DNA of 64,000 nucleotides. Origin: an uncultured bacterium. Lineage in GTDB: Bacteria; Abyssobacteria; SURF-5. The stretch is taken from assembly GCA_964607485.1 (NCBI GenBank), contig CAZSKP010000025.1, positions 1-64,000 of the forward strand. The letters run 5' to 3'. Both the position numbers and the translations under genes were made by a program. Below, in pieces: positions 6,388 to 30,308 of the stretch (position 1 is its first letter; each line of letters starts with the position of its first letter). The notes beneath the pieces are model-generated. The model was not told the origin of the DNA, did not search any database, and saw nothing but the letters and a program-made list of their open reading frames with translations.

Positions 6388-6807
6388 CTACTCCCCCGCT
6401 AGGCCCTCTTCTAGTTGGCTTATTGTGAGGAGCAGCGTCAAGAGGTTCTGCCTGTCCTGCTCGCTCAATTCGTCAAACTCGGAGCCGATGACATAGAACC
6501 CGCTTGTGGTAGAGGGACGGGTGTGAAGGACTTTTATTCTCGCCGTCATTTCCGGCCCAATGATGGGCCGGACCTTGAAGTGCATGTTGGCCCCTCGAGG
6601 GGGCTCGAAATTGGTTTCGAAACAGGCCCCGTTGATGCATATATTCAGGAGAAGCGCCCCCAGCTTTTTCTCAATGTCGGCCGCACCGGCATGGCCCGCT
6701 TGCGGCTTCACCGTGCAAGAGCAGGCGAATCTCGAGCACGTGAGCCTAGCGCAGCTGCGGCGTTCGTGGTGGGGTCTTTCACACATCTCTATGTGTCCGG
6801 TTTCCAT
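6388..6807 (-). CDS. PilZ-domain protein (putative c-di-GMP receptor)
   Basis: RxxxR ('RRSCAR') and NxxxxG ('NICING') motifs, C-terminal 'GSEF..LSEQDRQNL'. Confidence 0.75.
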   Translation of the reverse strand: METGHIEMCERPHHERRSCARLTCSRFACSCTVKPQAGHAGAADIEKKLGALLLNICINGACFETNFEPPRGANMHFKVRPIIGPEMTARIKVLHTRPSTTSGFYVIGSEFDELSEQDRQNLLTLLLTISQLEEGLAGE

Positions 6808-6831
6808 GGCTTGGCACCGTGAGAGAAATCT

Positions 6832-6846
6832 GCATAAACCTTGCCA
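6832..6846 (-). promoter_or_regulatory. sigma54 (-24/-12) promoter for the PilZ gene
   Basis: TGGCAAGGTTTATGC = GG-N10-GC, 25 nt upstream of the ATG. Confidence 0.6.
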
Positions 6847-6930
6847 AACCGGAGCAAAATGGTGTGATTGCAGGGCCTTTTTACAGAAATTTTCCGATAT
6901 CCCAACGGTTTTTCAAGCCGCCGGCGTCCC

Positions 6931-8460
6931 CTACCGCTGATGACATTGGTAGCAGAGCTCGCCGCCTGTGACGCCCACACGCAAAAGAAACACGATATCC
7001 GTGGCGTGTGGTGTGTGACAGGTGGTGCAGACGACCTCGTCATCGGGGCCGAAATTGAGCTTGTTGTCGGGTCGGATGTCGAGGTCGGCAGAGGGCTTGA
7101 CCCCTACCGGATGGGGGAAATCCTTATGCCGGCTGGGGTGACACAACGAGCAGAGCTGTTCGGTCTCCATCGTCAAATTGCCATTTCCCACACCTGAGTG
7201 GGGCATATGACACGTCGAGCAATTCCCCTCCTTGTACGGAAAATGAACGAAGCGATAAATTCGCTGGGGGCGTGAGTCGTGACAGCGGAAGCACAGGGCC
7301 TGGCCCTCGTCCTTCAAGAGCGCCGGCAGATTACCCATGTGCGGCTGGTGACAGGCGACGCATCCCTGTTCAACCGCCGTATGAGGATGTTGTTCCTGTA
7401 TCTGCTTCGCAATCTCGGAATGACATTTGAAACAGGTCTCTTTTTCGGGACCGGCCAGAATTCCCGGTACGTCCGAACCGTGCGGATTGTGACACTCCAC
7501 GCATTGTCCGTTCGAGAAAGGCTCGTGCAGCCGCGCACCCTCAGGGGGCACGAGTGCATCGGCGTGACAGCGGGAGCAGAGGCCCACGCCCGGCTCGATG
7601 AGCAATGAGCTGTTGGGCGTGGCATGAGGCCCGTGGCAGTTCAGACAATCTTCCTCAGCGGGAAGGTGCGGAAACTTGGATTTCAAGAGCTCCTCGATAT
7701 CCGAATGGCACACGGTGCAGAGTTGCGACCCGACGGCGACCAGCTTCACCTGCTTTTCGCCCTCGGAGATCACATGACAGCTATCGCACATCCCCTCGCT
7801 GAACGGGTAGTGCGCGTTCTCCAGAATCAGCGCTTTGTTCGATGAGAAGTGGCCCTTATGACAAGAGAGACAATCGGTGCCCTCCGAGAGCAGATTCAGG
7901 TGAGCCTTGTTGAAGGCTTCGTCGGTGACGTCGTGACAGCCGGTGCACAGGTCCCACGGCTTCTCAACCAGCAGGGCGCGATTGGGAGAAGTATGCGGAT
8001 TGTGACAGGTCGTACATTCGCCGTCCTCGAACGGCGGATGCACCGAGGCGGGCCTTTCCCCCGCCGGCATTCCCTCGTGGCACATAAGACACAGGTCGGG
8101 CAGCCGGTCAAGCAGGAGAGTGGGATATTCCGACGAATGCGGGCTGTGGCAGGTGGTGCACTCGTCCACGACCGGATGCACCGACTTCATCTCTTCTTCT
8201 TTGGCGTAATCCCTGTGGCAAACCGTGCATATCGCCGAACCCTGCTCGGTAAAGCCGAACGTTTCGGGGTCATGACAGGCGTCGCATTGCTTTGATTCGA
8301 AGGGATAGTGAAGATATTTCTTCTGCAGGGCTTCCTTCATGTCGGCGTGACAGTCGAGACACTCGGTCTTCGTCGGGTCGTGTTCGACGTTAAATCCGGA
8401 GAAAACAAAGAAAACACCCAGCAAGAAGAAGAACCCGCATACGTTTTTTGCCGTTATCAA
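6931..8460 (-). CDS. Multiheme cytochrome c, 20 CXXCH
   Basis: 20 CXXCH counted, arranged as paired H-P..CxxCHxPH..CxxCH repeats; N-terminal signal; TTG start after AGGAG. Confidence 0.92.
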   Translation of the reverse strand: MITAKNVCGFFFLLGVFFVFSGFNVEHDPTKTECLDCHADMKEALQKKYLHYPFESKQCDACHDPETFGFTEQGSAICTVCHRDYAKEEEMKSVHPVVDECTTCHSPHSSEYPTLLLDRLPDLCLMCHEGMPAGERPASVHPPFEDGECTTCHNPHTSPNRALLVEKPWDLCTGCHDVTDEAFNKAHLNLLSEGTDCLSCHKGHFSSNKALILENAHYPFSEGMCDSCHVISEGEKQVKLVAVGSQLCTVCHSDIEELLKSKFPHLPAEEDCLNCHGPHATPNSSLLIEPGVGLCSRCHADALVPPEGARLHEPFSNGQCVECHNPHGSDVPGILAGPEKETCFKCHSEIAKQIQEQHPHTAVEQGCVACHQPHMGNLPALLKDEGQALCFRCHDSRPQRIYRFVHFPYKEGNCSTCHMPHSGVGNGNLTMETEQLCSLCHPSRHKDFPHPVGVKPSADLDIRPDNKLNFGPDDEVVCTTCHTPHATDIVFLLRVGVTGGELCYQCHQR

Positions 8461-8502
8461 ACTCTTTAACTCCTTTTTTGGCGCCCGATTCTGGGCGTTC
8501 GC

Positions 8503-9288
8503 TCAGTGGGAGATGCCCTTGATGGTTTCCCACTCCTGCAACACGGCGCCGTGGGCCTTTTCCCTCTCGGCTTCGGTGGATTCTAACTCCTCCCTCGTGG
8601 GAGCAAGTGGAATGACCGGCTCCTCTATGGGCTTGGCCGGCACGAGCTCTTTCTTCACTTTCAGGGGGAGCCTCGCGACGTAGCCTTCTTTCCCTTCCGG
8701 ATACATCGCCGCCCCGAGCGCCTGCACCATGTCTTTCACCACGATTTCGGACAGAACTCCCAGCGAATTCACTCTCCCTATCCCAAAGACGATTTCCTTA
8801 TAGTCGCCCTGAAGCGAATGGGTCGCCGACCACACAATCTCACCACTGTTCGCGTCGACGAGCCTCAGGGTTATCGAGACTGCGGGCAACAAGCCCAGGT
8901 CGGTCGTGATGGTGGCGTATTCGTTCACGCTCCCAAAGATGATGCCGTCGGCGGTGAGCTCCCGCGAGGCTGCGCGTATGGTGTCGAGATCGAGCTGCGC
9001 CGCGACCCGAATCCGCGAACGGATTATGAACTGTTGAATCTCGCCCGGCTCGACCAGGTTCACAAGGTTCGAATTGTACAACTCCGAAACCAGAATACTC
9101 GTCACCCGGCTTCCGGCCTCGGGCGCACCGCTGAGGTTCTCCAGCGGAAACACCGCTATGCGGTTGAACCGTGTCACCTCGGGCGCGGGCCGCACGCTGA
9201 ACTGTGTGCGTCCGCAGGAGGCGAACACAAGAATGAGTCCAACAGCCACGAAACGCTCTAACGTGCTTTTCTTCGTCATCATTGTCAT
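8503..9288 (-). CDS. Lipoprotein, CsgG/DUF799 (GNA1162)-like
   Basis: Lipobox FASC, 'RIAVFPLENLS', 'ADGIIFGSVNEY', 'ITLRLVDANSGEIVWSA'; ATGA overlap with the upstream gene. Confidence 0.75.
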   Translation of the reverse strand: MTMMTKKSTLERFVAVGLILVFASCGRTQFSVRPAPEVTRFNRIAVFPLENLSGAPEAGSRVTSILVSELYNSNLVNLVEPGEIQQFIIRSRIRVAAQLDLDTIRAASRELTADGIIFGSVNEYATITTDLGLLPAVSITLRLVDANSGEIVWSATHSLQGDYKEIVFGIGRVNSLGVLSEIVVKDMVQALGAAMYPEGKEGYVARLPLKVKKELVPAKPIEEPVIPLAPTREELESTEAEREKAHGAVLQEWETIKGISH

Positions 9289-9860
9289 CTCACCATGTCT
9301 ATCAGTTTGCGACATACCCTTCGAGTGAGAACCGAAAAAAGCTGCTCCTCGCCCACGTCGACCACCGGCACCCTCGGGCTCCCCTCCTCCGACGCGGTAC
9401 CCATGAAGATGATGGTTCCCGTGTTCACGTCCACCCAGCGGACGTTGACCGCCACAACCGGATAGCTTTCGTTCCGAAACCGCTCCCTACCGTACTCCTG
9501 AACGCTGCCGAAGATGAGCGTGTCGGCCCGAAGCGCATTGCCGACCGATTTGATCTGGCTCTGGCTCAGCTTGCTTCCGACGATGCTGTTGTCTCTCAGA
9601 ACGCGCGCCACCTCTCCCGGCTCGACGACTTCGACGTCTATATCCATCAGGAGCTCTGAGATGTAGATCGTCGTCACCTTTTCACCCGCAAACTGGGTAA
9701 CGGTAAGGTTCTCAAACGGAATGACCGCCACGCGCGCGATTGCGCTCAAATCGGCCTCGGGATGCCTGAACGCCTGCACTCCCGTCGCGCATCCCGCAAA
9801 CAGCAACGCCGACACAAGCAGCCAGCTCAGAAAACGCACTCTAAGGATGTTAGATTTCAT
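9285..9860 (-). CDS. Lipoprotein, CsgG/DUF799-like (paralog of the downstream gene)
   Basis: Lipobox FAGC, 'RVAVIPFENLT', 'ADTLIFGSVQEY', 'VNVRWVDVNTGTIIF'; GGAGG RBS before 9860. Confidence 0.75.
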   Translation of the reverse strand: MKSNILRVRFLSWLLVSALLFAGCATGVQAFRHPEADLSAIARVAVIPFENLTVTQFAGEKVTTIYISELLMDIDVEVVEPGEVARVLRDNSIVGSKLSQSQIKSVGNALRADTLIFGSVQEYGRERFRNESYPVVAVNVRWVDVNTGTIIFMGTASEEGSPRVPVVDVGEEQLFSVLTRRVCRKLIDMVR

Positions 9861-9981
9861 CCCCGCCTCCCGGGATCTGTCCCTGTCGCCACGCTCCAAT
9901 TGGTTCACAGCCATCTTCGTCACTCTCCATCTTCAAGCCAAAGTTTCACAGCACAATAAAGAAACGTTCATGGTGCTGCTC

Positions 9982-12486
9982 TCAGAAAATCTTCGTCAGC
10001 TCGACGAACAGGAAATTGCTGTCGGACTGTTGCCCTTCCTCGATCTCCCAATTGATCGACATTCTGGTGTCCCAAAAGAAAGGAAACTTCGCCTGAGTCC
10101 TGAAGCTGAATACTTTCTCCTCATCGGAGCCGCCCCGGTATCCGACGAAGAAAGTCAGTTTGTCGTTCATCTTCCAGACGAGGTTCGATAAATAGCTCAG
10201 CCTATCCGTGGTCATGCCGTCGGACTTGCTCTCTACGTAATCCATATCCAGAAATAAGTCGAGCCGACGGCTGATGGCCCACGCGAGATCCATGCTCCCG
10301 AAGATCGTCTCCGAGCTCACATCGTCCAGCCCGGCGAACTTGCTGTCGCTCTTATTATATTCGGCAGTCGTGTTCAATGTCATGTTGGGCCTCGGCACAA
10401 GCCTCAGCCGACCCCGAACTCGTTGGCTGTCCACCGTGCCGTCGGCCTCGAAATCCTTGGACTGGCTGCTCGAAAGCTGCACATTGAGGTCGACGCCCCG
10501 ATATATTTTCATGTCGGTCGTGGCCGAGAACGTGTCCGTTTCCAGCACCTTCTCGTTTTCCTGCTCATTCTGCTGGTTCGAGTAGCTGAGGTCCACTCTG
10601 ACCCTGTCGGTGGGGAGCAGGTTCAGGCTCAGGTTTGTAAACGTGCTGTCCTCGTCGGGGCCGATATTGGTGTTCAGGTTGGCCAGCTGGTACGTCGCCG
10701 ACATGTTTACCCGAGGTATCGGCTGGAGAGAAAGCGTGTGGGTCTGGATGAATTCGTCACGCTTCGACTTCACATCTCCCGCCTCGGTTTCGAAAAGCTC
10801 AAGGTCGAACAGCGATGTAAACGATACCCAGCGATAGGGCTGGAGTCTGACCTGGGTGGTCAATTCGTGGGTAAGAGACGAGACCAGCTCCTCTCCCGTG
10901 TCCTTGTCCTCCTCCTTCGATTTGAAAAACTCGTAGTCCACAGAGGCATAGACTCCCTGAACCAGCTCGCGGGAATAGATGATGTTGAACGAATCCGACA
11001 TCAGATGCGTGCTCCGGCCCCGCTCCTCGCCGCTTATGGAGCCGACCTGGAAGATGAACATGCCGGCGCTCGTGAGCACCTGAAACCTGTCGTTTCCCGT
11101 GTCGGCAACAACGACGTCGTCGGCCGGCGTCAGGGCTATTCCACTGGGGGCATTGAACTCGCCGGGGCCGGTTCCCGAGGCGCCAAATTCATTCAGGAAC
11201 GCCCCCGCCGTGGTGAACACCTGTACCCTGTTGTTTCCCGTATCCGTCACGTACACCCGATTGACGGAATCGAGCGCGACATCCGTGGGAGATTGAAACT
11301 GGCCGGGGCTGGAGCCGAACGAGCCCCACTGAGTCACGAATGCGCCAGCCGTCGTGAACACCTGCACGCGGTGGTTCTGGGTGTCGGCCACGAACACGAG
11401 GCTGCCGTTCGACGCGATTCCCGACGGCGCGGAGAAGTTGCCCGGACCGGAACCGGTGGTGCCGAACGAAAACAAGAAGGCTCCGGCGTCGGTGAACTTC
11501 TGCACGCGGTCGTTCCCCTGGTCTGTCACGTACACGCCCGTGCCGTCAACCGCGACGCCATAGGGAGCGTCGAATTCACCCGCGCCGAGGCCGAACGTGC
11601 CCCATTCGGAGACGAACGTGCCCGTCTGGTCGAACCTCTGCACGCGGTCGTTGTCCGAATCGACCACGTACACAAAACTCGGAGTCACGTCTATCCCCAA
11701 CGGATTCCTGAACTGGCCCTCGCCGCTTCCGAAGCTGCCGAATTCTCCCAGAAACGCTCCCGAAGAGCTGAACCTGAAGACACGGTTCGCCGTTGAATCC
11801 GTCGCGTAAATGACCCCCGCGGAATCCACGGCGACGCCCCTGACATTCTGCAGGGTCGTGGTGGTGAGCGTGGAGAGGTTGTTATCGAATTCCGTTTCCC
11901 GATGCGAATACCTTACGGACAGCGGCCCATTATCGTACGTCGAGCGTATTCCCCAGTTGGTCTCGACGAAATCGGTCTGCGGCTCCTCCGCATCGTCTTC
12001 GGTTGAGATCCTTGAGAAATCCACCGTAAGGTCGGGATAGTCAGGGTCGGGCTCATAGTAGAAATTCGAGAAGAGAGTGTTGGACGTCAGGGTAAGGCCG
12101 CCTTCCTCGAGGTCTTTCTGTTTGAACTCTCGATATTCCACCAGCCATCGGTATTCCGGCCCCCTCAGGTTGAATCCGGCCAGCGGCCTGAGTTCCTCGG
12201 AGTCGGGGTTGTTTTGCTCCTCTCGGGAGAACTGAAAATAGAGGTCCAACAAATCCACGTTGCTCAGGGCCGTGCTCCAATTCAGGCGAAACCTCTGTTC
12301 AAAAGAGGAGAAGACCTCGCCGTCTTCTTCCTGTCTAAGGTAGTTCACGGTCGCCGATCCGCTCATTTCGCCGGCCCGCACGCTCACCGACCACAACAAC
12401 AATGCGCCGGTTACGAGCAAGAGCCGGCCTGCTCCTATGCATGAGGAAGACAGTTTACGCGGTTGCACATTCGATTTCTGGTTCAC
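9982..12486 (-). CDS. Outer-membrane beta-barrel with an inserted six-bladed NHL propeller
   Basis: Signal peptide, alternating amphipathic beta strands on both sides of six NHL repeats, C-terminal Phe ('FVELTKIF'). Confidence 0.8.
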   Translation of the reverse strand: MNQKSNVQPRKLSSSCIGAGRLLLVTGALLLWSVSVRAGEMSGSATVNYLRQEEDGEVFSSFEQRFRLNWSTALSNVDLLDLYFQFSREEQNNPDSEELRPLAGFNLRGPEYRWLVEYREFKQKDLEEGGLTLTSNTLFSNFYYEPDPDYPDLTVDFSRISTEDDAEEPQTDFVETNWGIRSTYDNGPLSVRYSHRETEFDNNLSTLTTTTLQNVRGVAVDSAGVIYATDSTANRVFRFSSSGAFLGEFGSFGSGEGQFRNPLGIDVTPSFVYVVDSDNDRVQRFDQTGTFVSEWGTFGLGAGEFDAPYGVAVDGTGVYVTDQGNDRVQKFTDAGAFLFSFGTTGSGPGNFSAPSGIASNGSLVFVADTQNHRVQVFTTAGAFVTQWGSFGSSPGQFQSPTDVALDSVNRVYVTDTGNNRVQVFTTAGAFLNEFGASGTGPGEFNAPSGIALTPADDVVVADTGNDRFQVLTSAGMFIFQVGSISGEERGRSTHLMSDSFNIIYSRELVQGVYASVDYEFFKSKEEDKDTGEELVSSLTHELTTQVRLQPYRWVSFTSLFDLELFETEAGDVKSKRDEFIQTHTLSLQPIPRVNMSATYQLANLNTNIGPDEDSTFTNLSLNLLPTDRVRVDLSYSNQQNEQENEKVLETDTFSATTDMKIYRGVDLNVQLSSSQSKDFEADGTVDSQRVRGRLRLVPRPNMTLNTTAEYNKSDSKFAGLDDVSSETIFGSMDLAWAISRRLDLFLDMDYVESKSDGMTTDRLSYLSNLVWKMNDKLTFFVGYRGGSDEEKVFSFRTQAKFPFFWDTRMSINWEIEEGQQSDSNFLFVELTKIF

Positions 12487-12527: not shown

Positions 12528-14012
12528 CTAATTATGACAAGCCACGTTGCAGTCGCCTTCATCCCAATCTCCGCTCGGCCCCCAGTTCGGGATATCGCTC
12601 TCCAACAACAATACCGTGCCGCCCCGGAGCCTGGCCGGGTCGCTCGTGGTCACGAGCAACGCCCGCCGGTTGATTCCATGCGGAATCTTGTCATGGCAGT
12701 CCATACACCCGATTGGCCGGTTCGCGACGACATTGTCCTGCTGAGAGTGAAATCCATGCAGGTTTCTAGTCCCGCCGTCCGAGGAAAAACCCGTGTTGCG
12801 ATTATCGTTTGCCTGCGCGTAGGTCGAAAAATCGTGGCACAGGAAGCAGAGGTGTCCGCTCGTGTCCTGCGTGGGCTGACCGGTTGTCACATCCCACGTA
12901 GCCTTCAACAGAAACTGAAGTTGGGAACCGTGGGGGCCTTCGGGGTCGCGCTCGACGTCGCTGCCGTGACAGTCGGAGCAGTACATCTGAGAGTCCCATC
13001 TCCAGCCGTTCACGAATTCGCCCCGGCCGTCGAGGTTGGGCGTCTGGATGACGTTGTGCGAACTCTCGTTGTTGGGGTTGAACTCGATCGACTGGTCCGT
13101 CTCCTGGCCTCCTCCCAGAGGCAACAGAGGCGGAAACGATCCATAGGCCCAGTATGAATGACACTTGAAACAAAGCTGATATTCGAATTGAATGTCGAAG
13201 GTCTGGTCCTTCGGCTCAAACGTCGGGAACGTGTCGGGCATGCCTCCATAGTTGGCCACGACGAAACTCGAGCCCATAAGCACGCCCGATGCCTGGTTTG
13301 TGCCCTGAACGTGAAGGTCCCCGGTGTGTACGTGCACGTTGTGGCAATCGACGCACTCGACATGTCGGCCCTGACCGGAAAAATTCGAGGAAATCATCTC
13401 TTCTCCCGCCCTGTGACGCCCGGCCATCTGGCGGTTGTCTATCTGGTGGGTAAATTGGTAAGTCAACTGCGTCTGGATGTCCTTCTGAGCGGGACCGGCC
13501 ACCCTGTGGCATCCCAGACACAAGTCTTCCTCCCGCCTGAACAAAAGCGAAGGCATCAGCCCCTCCGCGTCGCCCCAGCCGTGCGGCGTGTGACAGTTGA
13601 CGCACTTCCCCTTGGCTTCCGGCTCCATCCGGGCCGGAGGCTCCGGGCCAGGCCATCGCACCAGAAAGTCATTCTTGTGAATGGAGCGCTCGTACACGGA
13701 CGAGTCGCGATATGTCTCCTTCGGGCTTTCACCCGAGTGGCAGGTGAAGCACAACTGGTTGGTATCCTCCATCCAGAGCGCAAAATCGGTGGCGGCGCCG
13801 GGCGTTCCGTGCATCGAATGGCAATGCTCGCAGTCGCCCGGCGGAAGCGACGGGTCGCGCTTCACCCCTGTCGTCGGGTCTCCATGCAGCGTAGATGTGT
13901 ACAGTCCACCGCGCGCCCATCCGACGGATGCAACGCGCAAGGTAAGAATCGAGAGCGCGGCCAGCGCTGCGGCGACCATTACGATTTTCTTGACTGTCTG
14001 TCTCTTAGTCAT
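12528..14012 (-). CDS. Multiheme cytochrome c (9 CXXCH plus terminal CX3CH)
   Basis: CEHCH, CFTCH, CVNCH, CLGCH, CVDCH, CFKCH, CSDCH, CFLCH, CMDCH, CNVACH; signal peptide. Confidence 0.9.
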   Translation of the reverse strand: MTKRQTVKKIVMVAAALAALSILTLRVASVGWARGGLYTSTLHGDPTTGVKRDPSLPPGDCEHCHSMHGTPGAATDFALWMEDTNQLCFTCHSGESPKETYRDSSVYERSIHKNDFLVRWPGPEPPARMEPEAKGKCVNCHTPHGWGDAEGLMPSLLFRREEDLCLGCHRVAGPAQKDIQTQLTYQFTHQIDNRQMAGRHRAGEEMISSNFSGQGRHVECVDCHNVHVHTGDLHVQGTNQASGVLMGSSFVVANYGGMPDTFPTFEPKDQTFDIQFEYQLCFKCHSYWAYGSFPPLLPLGGGQETDQSIEFNPNNESSHNVIQTPNLDGRGEFVNGWRWDSQMYCSDCHGSDVERDPEGPHGSQLQFLLKATWDVTTGQPTQDTSGHLCFLCHDFSTYAQANDNRNTGFSSDGGTRNLHGFHSQQDNVVANRPIGCMDCHDKIPHGINRRALLVTTSDPARLRGGTVLLLESDIPNWGPSGDWDEGDCNVACHN

Positions 14013-16085: not shown

Positions 16086-16130
16086 AAAAAATCGAAGGAG
16101 GCGCTCCCTCGTTCAGGAAGCGCCTCCTCC
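16086..16130 (-). terminator. Intrinsic terminator downstream of the OmcS-like gene
   Basis: GGAGGAGGCGCTTCC-N7-GGGAGCGCCTCCTTC followed by GATTTTTT on the minus strand. Confidence 0.65.
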
Positions 16131-22625: not shown

Positions 22626-22813
22626 GTTGAAGTCAACGTTATAAAGCAAAAAGAGTTCTTGAAGGACTCGCAATTTTCATGCCACGAGCGCTCAAACAAT
22701 ATAACATTATACATGCTTTTCGGCAAAACGCAACTCCCGGCCACAGAGCCGCTCAACTTTTTCTTCACCACAGGGTACACGACACGCACAGCGATCAAAT
22801 TCCTGGAAACCTC

Positions 22814-22896
22814 ACGCCAAGACGCCAAGGCGCAAAGAACGCAAAGGAAGACGTCGTTCAAGACTCTGGACTCTGGACCTTGGACTTTGGACTCAG
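22814..22896. repeat. Two short tandem-repeat tracts
   Basis: About 4x (A/G)CGC(C/A)AAG at 22814-22846 and 5x GAC(T/C)nnG heptamer at 22862-22896. Confidence 0.7.
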
Positions 22897-23699: not shown

Positions 23700-23706
23700 G
23701 GCAGGT

Positions 23707-25065
23707 TCACTCCCCTATCGCTTTGCGCAGTTGCGCGAGCAGTCCGTTCCACTCATACACAAAGTCGGGTCTATTCTTCACGCTGTAACTCAAAACTCTT
23801 ATGCGCCCGCTTTCGCCCGACTCTCCGCCGTCGAACTCAACCCGGACGAACCGCCGGAACATGTAGCAAGAAACGAGCGCGCCGCCCACGAGGAGCACAA
23901 ACCCGAAATAAGCGAACGCGGCGCCGGGGTCTTTCACTATCTTGATGCCGGAATAATATTTCAGACTCACTCGCTCGATAGCGAGCGTGAGCGGGCCGGA
24001 CGAGGAGTCGTGCCGCGGCACAATTCCCTTGAAGGCCCATCCGGTCCACACAGGCTGCTCGCTCCGGGCCGGAGAATACACGGACACCTTCGCTGCCGGG
24101 TTCAGGAAGAACCGGCTGCGCGAAAACACATTGTTCTTCGAGTCGATGGCGAAATCGGGAACGATCTCTTTCAGCTCGACCGCCATGTCCCGGCCGGCTA
24201 TGTCGGCGCGTTTGCCGGGCACAAGCCTTATGCTTGCGACAGGCGAGCGGGTTGCCGGTTTAAACGCGACGAGGCTCACATAGCGGACGTCGGGGCGATA
24301 ACGCATTTGATAAAGAGTCGCCCCTCCGACGGAGAGCGGCTGATTCACGCGCAGCATGTGCCAGCTTGGGGCGCCGTCGTTGCCTGTGACCATCAGGGTG
24401 CTGACATATTCCTCGGGCTCTCTCGTGCCCGGATGATGAACGATGGAGAATTTCTCGAGCCTGAGTTTCGTCTGAGTATCGGGAATCGTGTACGTCTCTC
24501 CCTCGCCCAGCATGATTTCGCGGACGGTTCCGAAATTGTGGGTGACGAGCCCGCCGACAAATGCGACGACCAGCCCGAGATGCACAACCAGCGGCCCCAG
24601 CACTCCGGCGCGTCCCTTGTCGAACAGGACGGCCTCGTCGGCCGGTTCGGCAGAGGCTGCGCGCGCGTGGTATCCCCTGTCGCGCAGAATTCGCGTTACT
24701 TTCTTGCGGACCGTTTCTCTTGAAGCCTCGGAAATAGGAATGGAGTGCGTCGCCACTCCGTCCTCGCGGGACCACGCCGCTTTGTCGGGGATGAAAGCGA
24801 AGGCCCTGATTACCGAGGGCAGCCTCCTGAGCGAGCAGTAGATCATCAACGAAGCGAGGAAGACGAGAAGCGATGTGTACCACCACGTGTGATAGAGGTT
24901 CTCCGCGCCGATAGCCCGGAGCAGCCCGGATAAAACTCTCCCGACGGTTCCGGTCTCAAGAAGCTTGACCGGAATCGTGCCGAGAACGGAAGCGAGCCCA
25001 ACGGCGCAAATGAGGGCGATGGTCAGCGCCGGCGAGCGCAGTTTCTGGTCGATCGTCCGCCACAC
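23707..25065 (-). CDS. resB: Cytochrome c biogenesis system II protein (ResB/CcsB)
   Basis: 'SVLGT', 'YHTWWY', 'CSLRR', 'VHLG', 'VNQPL..G..LYQ', 'KDPG'; adjacent to ccsA. Confidence 0.9.
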   Translation of the reverse strand: MWRTIDQKLRSPALTIALICAVGLASVLGTIPVKLLETGTVGRVLSGLLRAIGAENLYHTWWYTSLLVFLASLMIYCSLRRLPSVIRAFAFIPDKAAWSREDGVATHSIPISEASRETVRKKVTRILRDRGYHARAASAEPADEAVLFDKGRAGVLGPLVVHLGLVVAFVGGLVTHNFGTVREIMLGEGETYTIPDTQTKLRLEKFSIVHHPGTREPEEYVSTLMVTGNDGAPSWHMLRVNQPLSVGGATLYQMRYRPDVRYVSLVAFKPATRSPVASIRLVPGKRADIAGRDMAVELKEIVPDFAIDSKNNVFSRSRFFLNPAAKVSVYSPARSEQPVWTGWAFKGIVPRHDSSSGPLTLAIERVSLKYYSGIKIVKDPGAAFAYFGFVLLVGGALVSCYMFRRFVRVEFDGGESGESGRIRVLSYSVKNRPDFVYEWNGLLAQLRKAIGE

Positions 25066-25168: not shown

Positions 25169-27181
25169 TCAGAATCGATACGCGAGCGCCACATAGAAGC
25201 CGTGCCCGTGGTAATCTTCAAAGCCGTCGCCCAACTCGTCATCAAAGTCGAAGTATTCGTATCGCGCGCTGACGGTCTTGTTTTCGGCCAACTTGTACTC
25301 CACCCCCAACCAGATTTCGTCAAGCGCGTTGTCCACATCTTTACCGCCGCTCTCAGTGTGCTGGTATGCTGCTTTGGTGGCCCACTTATCGTTTATCACG
25401 TAATTGCCGCTCGTGAAGAATACCAATGAATCGTACCTGTAGTCGTACTTGCCGGTGCCGGGCGCCCACTGGTTGCCCACCGGCACGTTCGTCGGGGTGT
25501 CCAGTCTGTAGTTCTCGTACATCGCCATGCCGGTCAGCGTGATTCGGGTGGTGGGACTGCCGAAGACAGTCGCGGAAATCCGGTGCACGTCCAGGTCCTG
25601 CCCGTCAGTATTCTGAATGTCGAACCGCCTCTCGTCGCTCTCGAACTGATACTTGACCGTTGTCGTCCAGGCCGGCAGGAAATGCCAGTCTCCCTTTAGA
25701 GTAACCTCGTGAACGTCCCGCTTGAGGTCACCCAATATGCCAGGGTATGCGTCCGGTTCGAGGTCAAATTCTTCATCGTAGTCTTCATCGTTATCCTTAA
25801 AACGGTACCGAGCTGTCAGCCTTAGTTTCGGGCAGGGACGGTTCACGACGGTAATCGTGTACTCTTGGTTGTTGTAGTCGATATCGGCATCCCGCGAGAA
25901 GGTTCCCTCCACGACCTCTTTGACGTCCATGAACCTTTGTTCCCACTCTCCTTCGAGCGAGACGGTCGTATTCGGGAATCCCTTCCACACCAGCTCGACC
26001 GACTCGCCCAGCCGTGTGTCTTCCCAATCGGTCGCATTCGTCACCGGTTCGAGAACCCCGCCAAAGGGCGTCTGCTGACCCGTATGGTCGCCGTCGGTGT
26101 CGGAATGTTCCGCCCTGAAATTGGTGTGAATCGTCAGGTCTTTTGCTACATTCAAAAACACGAGCCCGAGAGTGACCACATCAGTTGTGCGGTCGTTGTC
26201 AACGTCGGTATCGATGAATACAAAAGGCCTGGTGAGACTGCCCGGTTGGAACACGTCGCGCTCAAACTCGTTCTTGATATCGCTGTGGTAGTAGTTTGCG
26301 CTCACGTAAATGTTCTCGGTGAGGAAGCTGTCGAAGCTAAACAGAGTTCGAAACTCCCTCCACTCCGGACTGTCGTCATGGATAACCGTGTCGCCAACGA
26401 CGTTGGAGAGAGCAACGGAGAGCTCGTCGTCCCGGAAATCCTCATACTCTTGTCTGAATTTGAAGTTGTACTTGTCGTTGATGGTCACGGGAATTTCCAC
26501 ATACACGGTGTCGCTTTCGCCGTCGAGGTCGTTGATTGTCGGAATCGAGCGCTGCCTCGGGAGCGGGTCGTTTTGCGCGAGCCCTCCCAGGAGCAGTTTC
26601 TCATCCCCGAAGCGTTCCCAGTGATGCCATCCCAGTACGACGTGAGGAATGTCGGGAATCAGCAGCGTGCCCTCTAGGTTCAGGTCAACACGGTCCGCGT
26701 ACAGGTTGTCATCGTCAAAATCGTTAAAACTGCTAGGCAGGCCGTAAAGGGTCGGGTCCCACACATCATTGGAAGAGCCGTCATAATATCTACGGTGCTT
26801 GGCGAATTCGAAATCCACGCGAAACACGTCGGGCTTGATGTAGTGCGCATCGCCTGCAAACTGATCCTCAGGTATCGCGCGAATGGAGACTTTGAGATTT
26901 TCGCTCGAGTAGGAAAGATGCTCGAAGCCGCCAGTGAAATCGTTGTCGATGAAGCGGTCTTCGCGAAAGCGGCCCTCGTCGCCGTTCACCTCGTAGTAGG
27001 TCAATCCCCCGCGCGCGTACCAGCCGTAATACCAGCCGTTCAAATCGTCTTCTCCATAAGGATAATACCAACTGTTCAAGTTTTCCAGCGGGTCCTCGTC
27101 CGCGCCGGCGATGGCAGGGCAAACCATAACCACAAGCAGGCCGACCAGCAACGCCGGAAGGAATTTCTTGGTCGCGTTCAT
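25169..27181 (-). CDS. MtrB/PioB-like outer-membrane porin
   Basis: Signal peptide, 'GDEGRFRED', long acidic amphipathic beta-strand pattern, C-terminal 'YVALAYRF'; follows an MtrA-like cytochrome. Confidence 0.78.
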   Translation of the reverse strand: MNATKKFLPALLVGLLVVMVCPAIAGADEDPLENLNSWYYPYGEDDLNGWYYGWYARGGLTYYEVNGDEGRFREDRFIDNDFTGGFEHLSYSSENLKVSIRAIPEDQFAGDAHYIKPDVFRVDFEFAKHRRYYDGSSNDVWDPTLYGLPSSFNDFDDDNLYADRVDLNLEGTLLIPDIPHVVLGWHHWERFGDEKLLLGGLAQNDPLPRQRSIPTINDLDGESDTVYVEIPVTINDKYNFKFRQEYEDFRDDELSVALSNVVGDTVIHDDSPEWREFRTLFSFDSFLTENIYVSANYYHSDIKNEFERDVFQPGSLTRPFVFIDTDVDNDRTTDVVTLGLVFLNVAKDLTIHTNFRAEHSDTDGDHTGQQTPFGGVLEPVTNATDWEDTRLGESVELVWKGFPNTTVSLEGEWEQRFMDVKEVVEGTFSRDADIDYNNQEYTITVVNRPCPKLRLTARYRFKDNDEDYDEEFDLEPDAYPGILGDLKRDVHEVTLKGDWHFLPAWTTTVKYQFESDERRFDIQNTDGQDLDVHRISATVFGSPTTRITLTGMAMYENYRLDTPTNVPVGNQWAPGTGKYDYRYDSLVFFTSGNYVINDKWATKAAYQHTESGGKDVDNALDEIWLGVEYKLAENKTVSARYEYFDFDDELGDGFEDYHGHGFYVALAYRF

Positions 27182-27248
27182 ATTCAAAACCCCCTGATTG
27201 TGCGCTGTGACCATTGTTTGTTGGCAACCTTCGGATTCGTTCCGCCGT

Positions 27249-28028
27249 CTAATTCAGGAAGTTACGTTCGATGTTAGACCCGTGAGGAGCGGAGTGATGG
27301 TCGACGCATTGCTCTCCCCGGCCCACCTGAACGACAACGCCGTGGGGGAAGTCGCCGATGGATCCAAGCACAGTATTTACGGAAGGCTCCCAATGGCATC
27401 GGATGCACGTCACAGTCTGATCGGCAACCAGCATCTTTTCGTAGACCGAACCGTGCGGATCGTGACATATTTGACAGCCGTCGCGCACGGGGTCGTGCTC
27501 GAACACGAACGGACCTCTTTGTTTCTTATGACATCTGAAGCAGATTTCCCCCGGTCGCAGGACCGAGACGGCCGACCACGGCCTCACGTCTTCGCCGTGG
27601 GGGTTATGACAATCCGTGCATTTCATCCACTTTTCCGGGACGGGATGATGATACTGAAGCTGAAACCTGCCGCGTATGTCCACGTGGCAAGTGAAGCAGC
27701 GGTTGGCGGAATACCTGACAATCTTGCTTGGGTCTCCGCCGGCATCGACGTGGAGGCTGCCCGCCCCGTGGCAGGACTCGCAAGCCTCGCCCTTGACCTG
27801 CTCCCCCTCTTTCACGCTTGTGCCAAAGTGGGAGGTCAGTCGAAATCGCTCCGCCTGATCGGGGTGGCACGCCTCGCAGGTTTCCATGCCCACGTATTCC
27901 GCCCCTTTGATCATCGGCCCGGCGAGACTCATCTGGCCGTGAGGTGAAGTCGTTTGACAGGAGAGGATGAGCGCGGAACCCAGGAGGCCAGCTACCAAAA
28001 TCCTTACTACCCAGCGAACTGTCGGCAT
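27249..28028 (-). CDS. MtrA/DmsE-like multiheme lipoprotein cytochrome (7 CXXCH plus CVDHH)
   Basis: Lipobox ILSC; 'YVGMETCEACH', 'CESCHGAGSLH', 'HHPV', 'KQRGPFVFEHDPV', C-terminal 'HGSN'. Confidence 0.88.
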   Translation of the reverse strand: MPTVRWVVRILVAGLLGSALILSCQTTSPHGQMSLAGPMIKGAEYVGMETCEACHPDQAERFRLTSHFGTSVKEGEQVKGEACESCHGAGSLHVDAGGDPSKIVRYSANRCFTCHVDIRGRFQLQYHHPVPEKWMKCTDCHNPHGEDVRPWSAVSVLRPGEICFRCHKKQRGPFVFEHDPVRDGCQICHDPHGSVYEKMLVADQTVTCIRCHWEPSVNTVLGSIGDFPHGVVVQVGRGEQCVDHHSAPHGSNIERNFLN

Positions 28029-28255: not shown

Positions 28256-28766
28256 GGGAAAAAACCGAGGTTGGAAGAGATTTCCCCATTTTTCTCTTCT
28301 TTTTCGTCACGAAATGCTGCTTTTCAAGAACATTGCTACTCTTTCTTTAAGGCAACTCTCCGGAAGCAAACGCAGGCCGCATGGCCGTGCATCCTTGCGA
28401 CCGACTCTCAAGTGTGGCATCGGGATAATGAAGACACGTTAGCAGAATCAAGTACACGATGCCGCACCATGTACCGGGCATGCCAGCTTCATACCAAGCC
28501 TCATCCGGAGTTGACCACAGACCTCAAATGAGGCGCTGCGCGGCCGAATTTGTCCAGCGCGCGTCTGCAGAATCCCCCCATCGAGTATGCACATTACGTA
28601 ACCCCTCGTTTCCACCGTCTGCTTCCTCGCACCGATGTTCCGCACGCACGCGGAAGCAACTCCTGTCTCTCGAATTTTTCTGTAACCAAGAGAGTTACAG
28701 GAGCGAGGGCCATTTGTTGCGGAAGAACTGGAAGGCAAAATGCAATCCGGCGGGGATTACAATTCG

Positions 28767-28805
28767 GACATTTTTTCTCTCAAAATGTCGTGGATTTCTT
28801 GACAT
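28767..28805. promoter_or_regulatory. Overlapping inverted repeats, candidate bEBP enhancer
   Basis: GACATTTT-N7-AAAATGTC and ATGTC-N11-GACAT, about 100 bp upstream of a sigma54 site. Confidence 0.5.
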
Positions 28806-28888
28806 ACAATCAAAAGCCGACGCGTATCCCTTCATTACCCATTGGAACATATGGAGATAGGTGCAAATATCAGGCGAATTCCGACTAT

Positions 28889-28903
28889 TGGCATAGTAAT
28901 TGC
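28889..28903 (+). promoter_or_regulatory. sigma54 (-24/-12) promoter
   Basis: TGGCATAGTAATTGC, near-consensus GG-N10-GC. Confidence 0.75.
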
Positions 28904-29264
28904 CTTTTCCTCGACACAAAATAAGAGGCACCATCAGCGAAGACCGTCGAAAGCCCGCTGATGGCGCCGGGAAATGTGGGGATTACTCTTTCTTCCCCTT
29001 CATATTCTACCATTCATTCGAACGACTGTCAAACAATCACGTCAGCAGAGTATTTCCCCACATCTTCCCGAGCGTTTGGTCAGTGCGGCGCGTCGGCGGC
29101 CGAAGTCAAACCGCGAAACCATAACCGTCTGGAAAATACTGACATCAGGAATTGCAGAGAGGGGGGATGCGCTTACAAAGAGGCAGGCGTCTGGATCCCA
29201 AGATATGGGAGAAAGCATGCATCGGTTGTTTTTCAAAATGCAGGGTAATTCTTAGGGGGAAACA

Positions 29265-30308
29265 ATGAAGCTCAGATTCCTTTTGCTAGTGACAGTGTTC
29301 CTGGCAGCAATCTGTCTGACGGTGTTTTCACCGACGCAGGCCACAGCCGAACCGACTTTCTTCGCGCAGTACTGCGCGGGCTGTCACACGAATGATAGTG
29401 CCACATGCAACGGCTGCCATGCGCACGGCGTGTGGCAGAGCTCTTCGAGACAGGTCATGAACCTGACGGCTACCACCGACCTCGACCAGTATCAGCCCGG
29501 CCAGACGGTGACGGTCACATTCAGTGGAGGGTATCGCCACGGATGGATTCGAGCGATACTGTACGATCACAATTCGCAGGAGGTTGACAGGATCACCGGC
29601 CCGACCGGCATGGGCGACGACGGCACTGGGTCCTCCGACCTGGAGTTCCCGGTGCTGCTCTCGGCAGCGGCTCCTTCGACACCGGGTTTCTACACATGGA
29701 GCGTCTCCTGGTTCGGCTCGCCGTTCGATACAAACAACTCGAACGTATATCCTCACGTTCAGGAAAACGTCCCGACCAACGAGTTCGAAGTCCTTCCCGT
29801 TAGCTGTAACGACGCCGACGGCGACGGCTACGAAGATGCCGCGTGTAATCCCGACCCCGCGAACGGGGGCGGCGACTGTGACGACACCGACGCATCGGTC
29901 AATCCGGGAATGACGGAGGTCTGCGACGACGGCATCGATAACGATTGCGACGGGCTTGTAGACGCAAACGACCCGGACTGTGGAACGGCACTGACGCAGA
30001 TAACTCTCAATTCTCCACAGAATCTTGCTAACGTTTCCTCACCTCCGACGTTCTCCTGGACGCCCGACGGAGGCACGAATTGCGTCTTCGCGGTTGACCT
30101 GGCCCTGTCGCCCACGGGTCCGATTTACTCCACTTACGAGAACATGCATCAACCCATTCACGTCACGACGTGGACCATGCCCGCGTCGATATGGAACAAA
30201 ATCCCTTCAGGAAAGCGGGTGTACTGGCGGGTGCGCGGCGCAGACATGGACGTAGTGCCGCGAAACATCATCACGTCCAATAGCGTGCGGTCGTTCTACA
30301 AGCAATGA
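29265..30308 (+). CDS. Exported diheme cytochrome c with acidic Cys-rich metal-binding repeat and C-terminal beta domain
   Basis: Signal peptide; CAGCH and CNGCH; 'CNDADGDGY..DCDDTDASVNPGMTEVCDDGIDNDCDG' (MopE-like putative metal-binding motif); GGGGG RBS. Confidence 0.8.
   Translation: MKLRFLLLVTVFLAAICLTVFSPTQATAEPTFFAQYCAGCHTNDSATCNGCHAHGVWQSSSRQVMNLTATTDLDQYQPGQTVTVTFSGGYRHGWIRAILYDHNSQEVDRITGPTGMGDDGTGSSDLEFPVLLSAAAPSTPGFYTWSVSWFGSPFDTNNSNVYPHVQENVPTNEFEVLPVSCNDADGDGYEDAACNPDPANGGGDCDDTDASVNPGMTEVCDDGIDNDCDGLVDANDPDCGTALTQITLNSPQNLANVSSPPTFSWTPDGGTNCVFAVDLALSPTGPIYSTYENMHQPIHVTTWTMPASIWNKIPSGKRVYWRVRGADMDVVPRNIITSNSVRSFYKQ

Follow-up and report, generated by a model that had tools for sequence, protein, structure and literature searches.

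Known systems

The closest described system is the omcS-osc operon of Geobacter sulfurreducens (GSU2504-GSU2493), and the osc machinery has already been called "widespread and ancient" (Shen et al. 2025, Cell Chem Biol 32:239, as relayed in the accessible text of PMC12977616 and PMC13194489). In the same texts, an eight-gene block (GSU2500-GSU2493) is tied to OmcS maturation and secretion. OscH is assigned to folding, OscEFG to secretion and OscD to morphology, and GSU2495 is oscI, with 26 hemes. OmcS is the only Geobacter wire-former known in the accessible text of PMC12977616, which does not count OmcT, OmcJ or GSU2501 among them. For OmcS, a polymer mounted on a porin has been put forward as a model (10.1101/2025.10.22.684050, accessible part).

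For comparison we used 78 loci, comprising one from Geomonas silvestris (L043), through which the G. sulfurreducens cluster was compared, and 77 others. The barrel gene was present in 43 of them, from many phyla. The core order in these was NHL protein, hexaheme, (propeller), barrel, short then long lipoprotein, PPIase, 26-heme and 16-heme cytochrome.

Locus organization

The window analyzed (the whole stretch of DNA, 64 kb) comes from an uncultured deep-subsurface-type bacterium that is not Geobacter, as the preliminary description had supposed, and that is probably Candidatus Abyssobacteria (Hydrogenedentota). Within it, 17 intact and tightly spaced minus-strand genes run in one direction from 28028 to 6388, forming an operon of about 22 kb, and one diheme gene is divergent. 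Coordinates below are on the minus strand unless stated. All the genes previously named at 6388-30308 were found in the order given, with 92 canonical CXXCH motifs (20+9+6+6+16+26+7+2). The remaining listed ORFs of the window carried none, so this number is far beyond chance. GC content was even across the cluster (0.53-0.61). Heme density fell into two classes, about 25 and 55-64 residues per heme.

The locus resembled the G. sulfurreducens cluster in having an NHL gene before OmcS-type hexaheme genes, 26-heme and 16-heme cytochromes, and a same-family large barrel with two CsgG/GNA1162-like lipoproteins behind it, first the short one and then the long one. These companions were homologous to the Geobacterales osc-type cluster, as represented by Geomonas silvestris. 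The earlier view of a rearranged and expanded cluster was borne out, as the canonical gene order is permuted, with the 26/16-heme pair upstream instead of downstream. A second NHL-hexaheme pair, a 10-heme and a 20-heme cytochrome, ccsBA, an MtrAB-like pair and a PilZ gene are added. L040 shares the order 26-heme, 16-heme, NHL, hexaheme, and in L001 a single 42-heme gene replaces the 26/16-heme pair upstream of the NHL and hexaheme genes.

Other features departed from the canonical cluster. The barrel insert is an NHL propeller here and discoidin-like there, and where the canonical long lipoprotein has two domains, the one here has a single domain. Domain and profile searches found no PPIase (OscH position) within the 64-kb window, which also lacked a YncE/lactonase-type propeller (OscD position). 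The PPIase gene was present in 35 of the 43 barrel-bearing loci and the other eight end at that point, so that none of the 43 was a complete cluster without it. Nor was an inner-membrane quinol oxidase or other electron entry point seen within the window. The locus can therefore not be called self-contained, as had been claimed, and the lack of the PPIase and of an electron entry point counts against a nanowire function.

Hexaheme cytochromes

Hexaheme-1 (16254..17414) is an OmcS homologue, matching PDB 6ef8_A over its full length (E 1.6e-48) and Geomonas hexahemes at 32-34% identity (E ~1e-56). A jackhmmer search with the Geomonas silvestris hexaheme matched the window at E 4e-116. Translation likely starts at an internal MKKAIV, and the predicted mature N-terminus is FHDAGVARCSGCHTMH. 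As in OmcS (PDB 6ef8/6nef), there are six CXXCH motifs in identical order, a mature N-terminus of the form F-H-x-x-G-V-A-x-C-x-G-C-H-T-M-H and a C-terminal LCNKCHA motif, although hexaheme-1 is about 40 residues shorter because of loop deletions. Its H60, the equivalent of OmcS His16, was invariant in all 25 aligned homologues. OmcS is a filament subunit, and hexaheme-1 a putative one. In a quick tree, the hexaheme-1 clade (32 rows, support 100) stood apart from a second clade (40 rows, support 97) that took in every Geobacteraceae row, and this separation counts against a nanowire function. Directly 3' of the gene lies an intrinsic-terminator-like hairpin with a U run (16094..16130; 16-bp stem). 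Its folding energy was -43.9 kcal/mol (z -5.83), and none of 200 shuffled sequences was equally stable.

The partner of hexaheme-1 is an NHL β-propeller (17411..18478; Pfam NHL, E 1.1e-15) that matched the Geomonas NHL protein (jackhmmer E 7.1e-101; BLASTP 30% identity, E 2e-34). The NHL gene lies immediately upstream of the hexaheme gene in most cluster-bearing loci. A second NHL β-propeller (15022..15945; Pfam NHL, E 1.7e-22), with 24% identity to the first (E 1e-22), accompanies hexaheme-2 (14022..15107). This compact protein matched OmcS 6ef8 at E 6e-7 and hexaheme-1 at 30% identity (E 2.6e-25). Its family profile aligned with the OmcS-like profile with the six CXXCH motifs in register (probability 100, E 2.1e-47), and six further His residues were invariant in 27 of 27 sequences. 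On these alignments, hexaheme-2 is assigned to a divergent sister family within the OmcS superfamily. PDB match, profile comparison and BLASTP thus place both hexahemes in this superfamily, in agreement with the preliminary description. The AF2 model of hexaheme-2 had low confidence (pLDDT 66), which counts against a nanowire function; its sole significant PDB match was 6ef8_A (TM 0.36-0.40).

Barrel and lipoproteins

The 834-aa product of 9982..12486 is an osc-family outer-membrane barrel of about 28 strands, interrupted at about residues 205-490 by a six-bladed NHL propeller. Against it, 33 canonical cluster barrels gave hhalign probabilities of 98.6-99.6 (E 5e-16 to 2e-23), covering both barrel halves that flank the propeller, and jackhmmer linked it to the Geomonas silvestris barrel (E 4.6e-66). 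Structure prediction with AF2, one of the checks proposed earlier, gave a propeller flanked by 9 + 19 long strands (pLDDT 83.1, pTM 0.70), and the propeller resembled TRIM71/Thin NHL domains (TM 0.87-0.91). The "barrel-NHL fusion" of the preliminary description is correct in that one protein holds both parts, but the propeller is a mid-sequence insertion in a canonical barrel family, not an end-to-end joining. This architecture was found in 16 proteins, and the 15 others showed 46-68% identity. In nine of these, the longest contig was of the same length as one given for a closest hexaheme homologue. Both observations suggest a conserved arrangement under selection. Strand parity would place the propeller on the cell-surface side. 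This placement depends on counting the strands of a single AF2 model, which weighs against a nanowire function.

The short CsgG/GNA1162-like lipoprotein (9285..9923; lipobox LFAGC; Pfam CsgG 27.0 bits, gathering 20.8) is the counterpart of the short one behind the barrel in other loci, and matched that of Geomonas (28% identity, E 1.4e-16; jackhmmer E 1.8e-48). The second (8503..9315; lipobox FASC; Pfam CsgG 27.3 bits, gathering 20.8) corresponds to the long lipoprotein (27% identity to that of Geomonas, E 9e-15). The two share 33% identity, and jackhmmer searches with the Geomonas silvestris lipoproteins gave window matches at E 5e-52. By analogy, CsgG-like outer-membrane lipoproteins adjoin a fibre subunit gene as in CsgG curli and chaperone-usher pili. 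However, the Pfam matches span only part of the CsgG profile, the large barrel is separate here, and no homology to ushers or chaperones was detected.

Other cytochromes and accessory genes

The OscI-like 26-heme cytochrome (20196..22169; 26 CXXCH, 25 residues per heme) is of periplasmic type and has equivalents in the same clusters elsewhere (e.g., L008, L010, L029 and L038). The OscJ-like 16-heme gene (18869..20125; 16 CXXCH) likewise follows the 26-heme gene in L008, L029, L038, L040 and others. The extra 20-heme periplasmic-type cytochrome (6931..8460; 20 CXXCH, 25 residues per heme) occupies the slot held by the PPIase in other clusters. A 494-aa protein (12528..14012) is a 10-heme cytochrome by motif count, with nine CXXCH and one C-terminal CX3CH. 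It has 55 residues per heme, as in the hexahemes, and no PDB match. Its residues 60-155 aligned with hemes 1-3 of the hexaheme-2 family (hhalign probability 97.2, E 3.6e-11) and more weakly with the OmcS-like family (probability 61.5), so this predicted three-heme module resembles an OmcS-type N-terminus.

At the start of the operon, a heptaheme MtrA/DmsE-like lipoprotein (27249..28028; 259 aa, 7 CXXCH, lipobox ILSC) matched PDB 6r2q_A (E 3.4e-24; residues 80-253 on chain residues 157-325). Its NCBIfam scores fell below the cutoffs (DmsE family, 160 against 192 bits; GSU2203 family, 171 against 325). The 681-aa porin that follows (25169..27214) had a partial Pfam MtrB_PioB match (30.6 bits, gathering score 23), an ESM Atlas feature score of 0.98 to MtrB/PioB clusters (16 of 30 matches) and no PDB sequence match. 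A periplasm-facing multiheme gene followed by an MtrB/PioB-family porin gene recalls MtrAB/PioAB. Unlike in Shewanella Mtr (PDB 6r2q), however, there are seven hemes instead of ten, the match is to the C-terminal two thirds of chain A only, the heptaheme has a lipobox, and no gene for an MtrC-type partner lies alongside.

System II cytochrome c biogenesis is represented by a CcsB-type ResB (23707..25065; Pfam ResB, E 2.3e-47) and a CcsA-type heme-handling/lyase subunit (22893..23699; Pfam Cytochrom_C_asm, E 6.6e-46; NCBIfam TIGR03144, 220.9 bits, cutoff 187.6). An ORF overlapping CcsA (22858-23697) was rejected as being in the wrong frame. System II, the Mtr-like pair and the extra 20-heme and 10-heme cytochromes are unusual neighbors, in line with the expansion noted in the preliminary description: CcsA occurred in 4 of the 78 loci, ResB in one, and the porin or the MtrA/MtrB-like pair in none. 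Also without a counterpart in the 78 loci were the 158-aa small lipoprotein (22197..22673; lipobox IVAC after an internal Met; no Pfam or NCBIfam match) and the PilZ-domain protein at the operon end (6388..6807; Pfam PilZ 33.5 bits, gathering 22.5), in which RSCAR (RxxxR) and N-x-C-x-x-G motifs were read directly.

Proposed function and alternatives

The locus probably represents a lineage-specific variant of the osc nanowire system, in a host in or near Candidatus Abyssobacteria, and we infer filament formation from it. Judged by homology, it comprises an OmcS homologue, its divergent paralogue and an NHL propeller gene for each of them, an osc-type barrel with two lipoproteins, 26- and 16-heme cytochromes, System II ResB/CcsA, an MtrA-like/MtrB-like pair and a PilZ protein. 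The OmcS homology and the conservation of the heme ligands, His16 equivalent included, argue for a nanowire system. So do the cluster homology to Geomonas silvestris, the recurrent core order, the barrel profile and AF2 model, the L040 and L001 gene orders, the terminator, the heme-density split, the MtrA/MtrB likeness and the published Osc roles.

In such a system, ResB/CcsA would attach heme at 92-93 periplasmic sites, and the 26-, 16- and 20-heme proteins (about 25 residues per heme) would relay or hold electrons across the periplasm. Hexaheme-1 would be produced in excess, because the strong terminator after its gene sets it apart from the machinery genes. It would travel through the 28-strand barrel, or sit on it, in concert with both lipoproteins, and would polymerize head-to-tail like OmcS, the His16 equivalent ligating a heme of the next subunit. 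The surface-side propeller and the free NHL proteins may guide or shape the filament, replacing the missing OscD-type propeller and perhaps the PPIase chaperone. Through its OmcS-like N-terminal module, the 10-heme protein might attach to one end of a filament, serving as base or cap. The MtrAB-like pair may be a second, short-range outer-membrane route, and PilZ may couple the system to c-di-GMP.

A rather unlikely alternative is a surface cytochrome complex, in which the hexahemes and the 10-heme protein would act as monomers or short oligomers at the barrel and propeller, making up a conduit in the outer membrane comparable to porin-cytochrome complexes. We know of no filament seen for any relative in this clade. 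Together with OmcS being the sole known polymerizer among the Geobacter hexaheme paralogues (PMC12977616, accessible text), this counts against the nanowire system. The absence of the PPIase, a protein tied to nanowire folding, the barrel's own protein-binding propeller as a possible docking site and the Mtr-like conduit in the same operon also fit a complex. However, the His16 equivalent and all twelve heme ligands are kept as in OmcS, the secretion module of barrel and two lipoproteins is retained, and the strong terminator fits a subunit in large excess.

Electron uptake from minerals, Fe(II) or a partner cell, as opposed to respiratory export, is a question of physiology that fits either structural model, and we regard it as unlikely. 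MtrB/PioB-family porins also serve as conduits in Fe(II) oxidizers, which favors uptake and, like a direction of electron flow not set by the sequence, counts against the nanowire reading. Outer-membrane cytochrome clusters of sulfate reducers have been linked to electron uptake (PMC5815863, accessible part), and the accessible part of the Abyssubacteria description puts forward respiration of nitrate and sulfur without mentioning metal reduction (PMC6121073). Yet no sequence feature fixes the direction, and multiheme chains are reversible. A decaying remnant or chimeric contig, to which the missing PPIase and OscD-type propeller and the permuted order might point, is highly improbable given 17 intact, co-directional, tightly spaced genes, even GC and a barrel-with-propeller architecture apparently under selection.

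The preferred reading, a nanowire variant, is less novel than first assumed, since both the osc machinery and how widely it occurs have been published (PMC12977616 and PMC13194489, accessible text). The novelty lies in the variant itself, whose real departures are the propeller-bearing barrel, the lack of PPIase and OscD, the extra 20- and 10-heme cytochromes, and the co-located System II and Mtr-like pair.

The divergent gene (29265..30308, plus strand) had no counterpart in the 78 loci and is a neighbor with a putative link to the cluster. It encodes a secreted diheme protein with two CXXCH motifs and a MopE-type metal-binding motif (Pfam Cu-binding_MopE, E 2.7e-11).

Organization and heme content of the cluster

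Seventeen genes lay on the minus strand from 28028 to 6388, all in one direction and with mostly short gaps, and the ORF listing of the window placed one divergent gene at 29265-30308 on the plus strand. The numbers of canonical CXXCH motifs per cytochrome gene were 7, 26, 16, 6, 6, 9, 20 and 2, and our recount gave the total of 92 stated in the preliminary description. The 494-aa cytochrome (12528-14012, minus strand), with nine of these motifs, has an additional CX3CH at its C-terminal end beyond the CXXCH count and is called the 10-heme protein here. No CXXCH occurred in the remaining ORFs listed across the window, so the concentration of motifs in the cluster is not due to chance. All genes and domains named in that description were borne out by Pfam and NCBIfam. 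These included three proteins with NHL repeats, of which one has 834 aa, a PilZ-domain protein (6388-6807, minus strand) found in the scan of the cluster ORFs, and two lipoproteins that passed the Pfam gathering score of CsgG. The 26-heme and 16-heme cytochromes are the counterparts of oscI and oscJ in the omcS-companion (osc) cluster of G. sulfurreducens; the heme counts agreed exactly, the two genes were adjacent, and the same pair was found in other loci.

The cluster also contained the System II genes for cytochrome c maturation. The ResB-type and CcsA-type genes adjoin, only 7 nt apart, and were identified by ResB (E 2.3e-47) and Cytochrom_C_asm (E 6.6e-46) in Pfam and by TIGR03144, which scored above its NCBIfam cutoff. 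The correct frame of CcsA is 22893-23699 on the minus strand, and the overlapping ORF 22858-23697 is in the wrong frame.

Directly after the first hexaheme gene (hexaheme-1, 16254-17414, minus strand), the same strand contains a terminator-like element, in which a GC-rich hairpin with a 16-bp stem precedes a run of U; its folding energy is -43.9 kcal/mol (z -5.8). From its sequence, this element would fit the pattern expected behind a subunit gene expressed far above the remaining operon. Geobacter has c-di-GMP/cGAMP riboswitches; across the entire window, Rfam returned 0 matches and thus no riboswitch of this kind. Upstream of the operon lies a 1.2-kb divergent intergenic region (28029-29264), also free of Rfam elements. 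About 1 kb ahead of the first gene of the operon, it contains a promoter-like sequence close to the consensus, TTGACA-17-TAGAAT (29032-29004, minus strand), and a second TTGACA was found by eye around 28255. On the other side of this region, the divergent diheme protein with a MopE motif (29265-30308, plus strand) is closely followed by a VIT-VWA protein (30676-32994, plus strand), which resembles the 'marine proteobacterial sortase target' family and scored 440 bits against TIGR03788, under the cutoff of 552. These two are apparently surface proteins and seem to have no connection with the osc core.

Relation of the two hexahemes to OmcS

Hexaheme-1 matched OmcS (PDB 6ef8) over its whole length, in two stretches spanning residues 45-373 (E 1.6e-48). 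Past the signal peptide its N-terminus reads FHDAGVARCSGCHTMH, the OmcS equivalent being FHSGGVAECEGCHTMH. The second hexaheme (hexaheme-2, 14022-15107, minus strand) is a divergent relative that shared 30% identity with hexaheme-1 (E 2.6e-25) and matched OmcS only weakly in direct comparison (E 6e-7). When its family was compared with the OmcS-like family profile to profile, the probability was 100 and the E value 2.1e-47, with the six heme motifs in register. Both hexahemes therefore belong within the OmcS family, as had been proposed, hexaheme-1 by direct match and hexaheme-2 through its family profile. The OmcS-like family is large, and 4236 of 8000 scored candidates had E <=1e-5. At E <=1e-3 the hexaheme-2 family comprised 470 representative clusters, of which 22 reached E <=1e-30; the best had 45% identity.

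The six CXXCH motifs were invariant and in register in all 25 hexaheme-1 homologues and all 27 members of the hexaheme-2 family. H60 of hexaheme-1, three residues past the first CXXCH, was invariant in 25/25 aligned homologues. H72 of hexaheme-2, at the same position, was invariant in its own aligned family, and both residues matched the CHTMH of OmcS in the alignment. According to Wang et al. 2019, the OmcS hemes are reportedly all bis-His, and His16, the residue at this position (three after the first CXXCH), is reported to ligate a heme of the neighboring subunit. Besides the six CXXCH, the hexaheme-2 family has exactly six further invariant His residues (27/27), which fits six bis-His hemes. 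The AF2 model of hexaheme-2 was of low confidence (pLDDT 66), and its sole significant PDB match was 6ef8_A, at a TM-score of 0.36-0.40. A complex prediction with two mature copies of hexaheme-1 and four hemes scored 0.00, a result that counts neither for nor against binding.

Eight relatives of hexaheme-2 (P0258, P0265, P0266, P0284, P0302, P0303, P0329 and P0333) are giants of 697-2555 aa with 12-40 CXXCH. All of them open with a full hexaheme-2-like module, and five later repeat its N-terminal three-heme part. In these proteins, OmcS-type modules are joined covalently in series, which recalls the 10-heme protein of the window.

Comparison with the canonical osc cluster

When species-representative genomes were scanned with an alignment of 25 sequences, at least 78 loci from many phyla were retrieved, including Geomonas silvestris, Geomonas limicola and Geomobilimonas luticola. 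The closest locus to the window among the matches listed had 55% identity. A large barrel gene was present in 43 of the 78 listed loci, where one gene order recurred: an NHL protein, one or more hexahemes, a YncE/lactonase-type propeller (in 27 of the 43), a barrel of about 750 aa, a short and a long lipoprotein, a PPIase-domain protein, and the 26-heme and 16-heme cytochromes. This order matches the G. sulfurreducens osc operon in the available portions of its published descriptions (PMC12977616, PMC13194489). There, GSU2500-GSU2493 form an eight-gene block tied to OmcS maturation and secretion, oscC is GSU2501, oscI is GSU2495 with 26 hemes, and oscJ is GSU2494; folding is attributed to OscH, secretion to OscEFG and morphology to OscD. 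We assigned the other osc letters to genes by position, so that these are to be read as probable equivalences.

Eight Geomonas silvestris proteins were used as jackhmmer queries against the six-frame translation of the window. The NHL protein (E 7e-101), the hexaheme (E 4e-116), the barrel (E 4.6e-66) and the lipoproteins (E 5e-52 and 1.8e-48) all found matches, which upholds the homology claimed earlier for the NHL, barrel and lipoprotein companions. The barrel, the short lipoprotein and the long lipoprotein (OscE/F/G by position) were in the canonical order, and an NHL gene adjoined a hexaheme gene twice, forming two NHL-hexaheme pairs. In two of the comparison loci, L053 (17600-21295) and L067 (16993-21290), the ORF of the long lipoprotein exceeds 1200 aa.

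Two canonical components had no counterpart in the window. For the PPIase of the OscH position, no Rotamase/PPIase domain was found by Pfam in the window ORFs tested, inside and outside the cluster, and the Geomonas query gave no match in the six-frame jackhmmer search. Of the 43 barrel-bearing loci, 35 had this gene, and in the other 8 the available DNA ends at or just past the lipoprotein genes. Since no comparison locus had a complete cluster without a PPIase, its absence from the window is conspicuous; another part of the genome may carry it. The YncE/lactonase-type propeller of the OscD position likewise had no jackhmmer match in the window. Its absence is less telling because the propeller is not universal: 16 of the 43 barrel-bearing loci lack it.

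The added genes of the window were also sought around the 78 loci, up to about 10 kb on each side as far as the contig reached. CcsA was found in 4 loci and ResB in 1, and the 10-heme protein had weak matches only, in 7. The porin (25169-27214), the PilZ protein, the 158-aa lipoprotein (22197-22673), all three on the minus strand, and the diheme protein were found in none of the 78 within these flanks. Matches to MHC7 in 38 loci were rejected as MtrA-like orthologues, since they were cross-matches to truncated 26/16-heme genes. The order 26-heme, 16-heme, NHL, hexaheme of the window was also seen in L040, and L001 (5352-8477) has one 42-heme gene where other loci have the 26- and 16-heme pair. 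The arrangement in the window is therefore a permutation of modules and not new in itself. In a Nitrospirota locus (L068, 6706-16431), we noted five full tandem hexaheme genes with two 2-motif fragments, and a barrel split over three ORFs.

A barrel with a built-in propeller

The 834-aa barrel (9982-12486, minus strand) had no phmmer match among 36 canonical barrels, even at E 10. A profile of 33 canonical barrels aligned with it at a probability of 98.6-99.6 (E 5e-16 local, 2e-23 global) over residues 29-789, covering both barrel halves. The kinship was thus visible only with profile methods (hhalign, jackhmmer). A six-bladed NHL propeller occupies the middle of the protein (about residues 205-490); at the equivalent place, the canonical barrel of L008 gave a weak match to a galactose-binding-like domain. 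The AF2 model (pLDDT 83.1, pTM 0.70) contained nine long strands, the propeller, and then nineteen long strands, making 28. Outer-membrane barrels usually have both termini in the periplasm. With this strand count and both termini periplasmic, the propeller in the model would face the cell surface. Foldseek matched the propeller to the TRIM71/Thin NHL domains (TM-score 0.87-0.91), and all matches of the model were to NHL domains, with none to the barrel part.

The possibility that the propeller is a fused OscD was ruled out, because it is nearer to the NHL proteins of the cluster (E 1e-18) than to the YncE-type, OscD-type propeller of Geomonas (E 0.014). With the C-terminal barrel half as query, a set of 5.8 billion proteins yielded 16 proteins including that of the window, in a search that reaches only fairly close relatives. 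All 16 are 787-835 aa long and have NHL domains, and the named ones come from Candidatus Abyssubacteria. For nine of them, the length of the longest contig equalled one given for the closest hexaheme-1 homologues, which suggests that the barrel and hexaheme-1 genes may share a contig in those relatives.

Heptaheme, porin and 10-heme protein

The preliminary description had proposed an MtrAB-like pair, and this was upheld in part. The porin belongs to the MtrB/PioB family according to PF11854 (MtrB_PioB, 30.6 bits, gathering score 23) and the ESM Atlas (0.98 to MtrB/PioB); it scored 18 bits against TIGR03509 (cutoff 240) in NCBIfam and had no match in a PDB sequence search. Its neighbor, the heptaheme (27249-28028, minus strand), is homologous to PDB 6r2q chain A, presumably MtrA of the Mtr complex, over the C-terminal two thirds of the chain (E 3.4e-24), and it carries a lipobox. 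However, it has seven hemes, not the ten of a decaheme MtrA/DmsE-type partner, and scored 160 bits against the DmsE family TIGR03508 (NCBIfam), under the cutoff of 192. The heptaheme is a truncated relative.

The 10-heme protein had no relative in the PDB. The hexaheme-2 family aligned with it over the first three heme motifs of each (probability 97.2, E 3.6e-11). With 55 aa per heme, it is closer to the hexahemes (60-64) than to the 16-, 20- and 26-heme proteins (25-26).

Host lineage and previous knowledge

The closest named relatives of three proteins came from metagenome-assembled genomes of Candidatus Abyssobacteria/Abyssubacteria or Hydrogenedentota, at 72-76% identity for hexaheme-1, 59-64% for the barrel and 79-82% for a glycyl radical enzyme outside the cluster. 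A few close relatives bear other labels (Lindowbacteria, Poribacteria). In the NCBI taxonomy, Abyssobacteria is a class of Hydrogenedentota. In a quick tree, hexaheme-1 fell in a 7-row clade (support 99) with sequences labeled Abyssobacteria/Hydrogenedentota. This clade was nested in a larger one of 32 rows (support 100), with sequences from Krumholzibacteriota, Fibrobacterota, Acidobacteriota and similar lineages, and all Geobacteraceae rows were in a separate 40-row clade (support 97). The host is probably a member of Candidatus Abyssobacteria, and the impression that it does not look like Geobacter was correct.

The accompanying premise, that the machinery was unknown outside Geobacter, was weakened. 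Shen et al. 2025 published the osc machinery, with a title that describes it as widespread and ancient, and the kind of system is already known. Our literature search found no report of Hydrogenedentota with OmcS (Shen et al. 2025 and its supplements, which lay outside the search, may list the lineage), and none of Abyssubacteria with OmcS, multiheme cytochromes or extracellular electron transfer; Osc protein names were rare in the literature searched. In the available portion of the class description of Abyssubacteria (PMC6121073), nitrogen and sulfur respiration are described and multiheme cytochromes go unmentioned, nrfA, cNor and a lack of cytochrome oxidases being the only cytochrome-related content.

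Functional interpretation

The locus is best read as an osc-type operon for nanowire assembly and electron transfer, on the basis of the homology of its parts. In this operon the hexahemes would polymerize and leave the cell by an export route of the osc type, the built-in propeller of the barrel may act in this process, and the 10-heme protein may serve as an adaptor. The homology of the parts is shown, and the roles proposed here and the direction of electron flow are inferred from it. The main rival is a cytochrome complex bound at the surface, without long filaments. This explanation is credible because, in the available portion of PMC12977616, OmcS is the only one of four Geobacter paralogues known to polymerize. 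Beyond the nanowire operon as such, a more specific version seems rather improbable to us: an Abyssobacteria-type, streamlined OmcS-type filament machine in which the surface propeller of the barrel replaces both the OscD propeller and the OscH prolyl-isomerase chaperone, two filament subunits each have a private NHL partner, and the OmcS-like N-terminal module of the 10-heme adaptor plugs the filament into the cell. If true, it would be a minimal design found in nature that reveals what nanowire assembly can do without.

Among biological 'wires', OmcS filaments have been studied best, and their folding, secretion and anchoring are still unsettled. With the barrel and lipoproteins retained, the PPIase and OscD-type propeller missing, and a propeller inside the barrel, the cluster offers testable hypotheses on the essential parts. 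On the nanowire reading, OmcS-type extracellular electron transfer would also reach into the deep-subsurface class Candidatus Abyssobacteria.

Other genes in the window

Mirror-image ORFs of 722 aa were seen on opposite strands at 249-2417 (minus) and 279-2447 (plus). The former encodes a molybdopterin oxidoreductase that starts with an Fe4S4 domain; the latter had no Pfam match and was rejected as a shadow ORF. A 4Fe-4S ferredoxin-domain protein (2548-3420, minus strand) adjoins the oxidoreductase. The glycyl radical enzyme (40905-43406, plus strand) has 37% identity to a protein named (2S)-3-sulfopropanediol dehydratase and lies near several sulfur-related genes. Genes noted with it are at 3591-6299 (minus), 45720-46976 (plus), 49586-51718 (plus) and 55342-56430 (minus), and its neighbors include a sulfatase, an alkyl-sulfatase-like metallo-beta-lactamase, a SulP/STAS transporter and a TauE sulfite exporter. 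This grouping hints at organosulfur metabolism.

Between about 37875 and 40900, the GC content fell as low as 0.454 (38001-40000), compared with 0.52-0.61 elsewhere. The four ORFs there (37875-38690, 38694-39173, 39361-40026 and 40150-40878) had no Pfam match, and the region may be acquired DNA. Finally, a stand-alone response-regulator receiver was paired with a cytidylate-kinase-like (Cytidylate_kin2) protein in duplicate on the minus strand (53407-54666 and 54859-58030), adjoining a HAMP histidine kinase (51833-53410) and the TauE gene.
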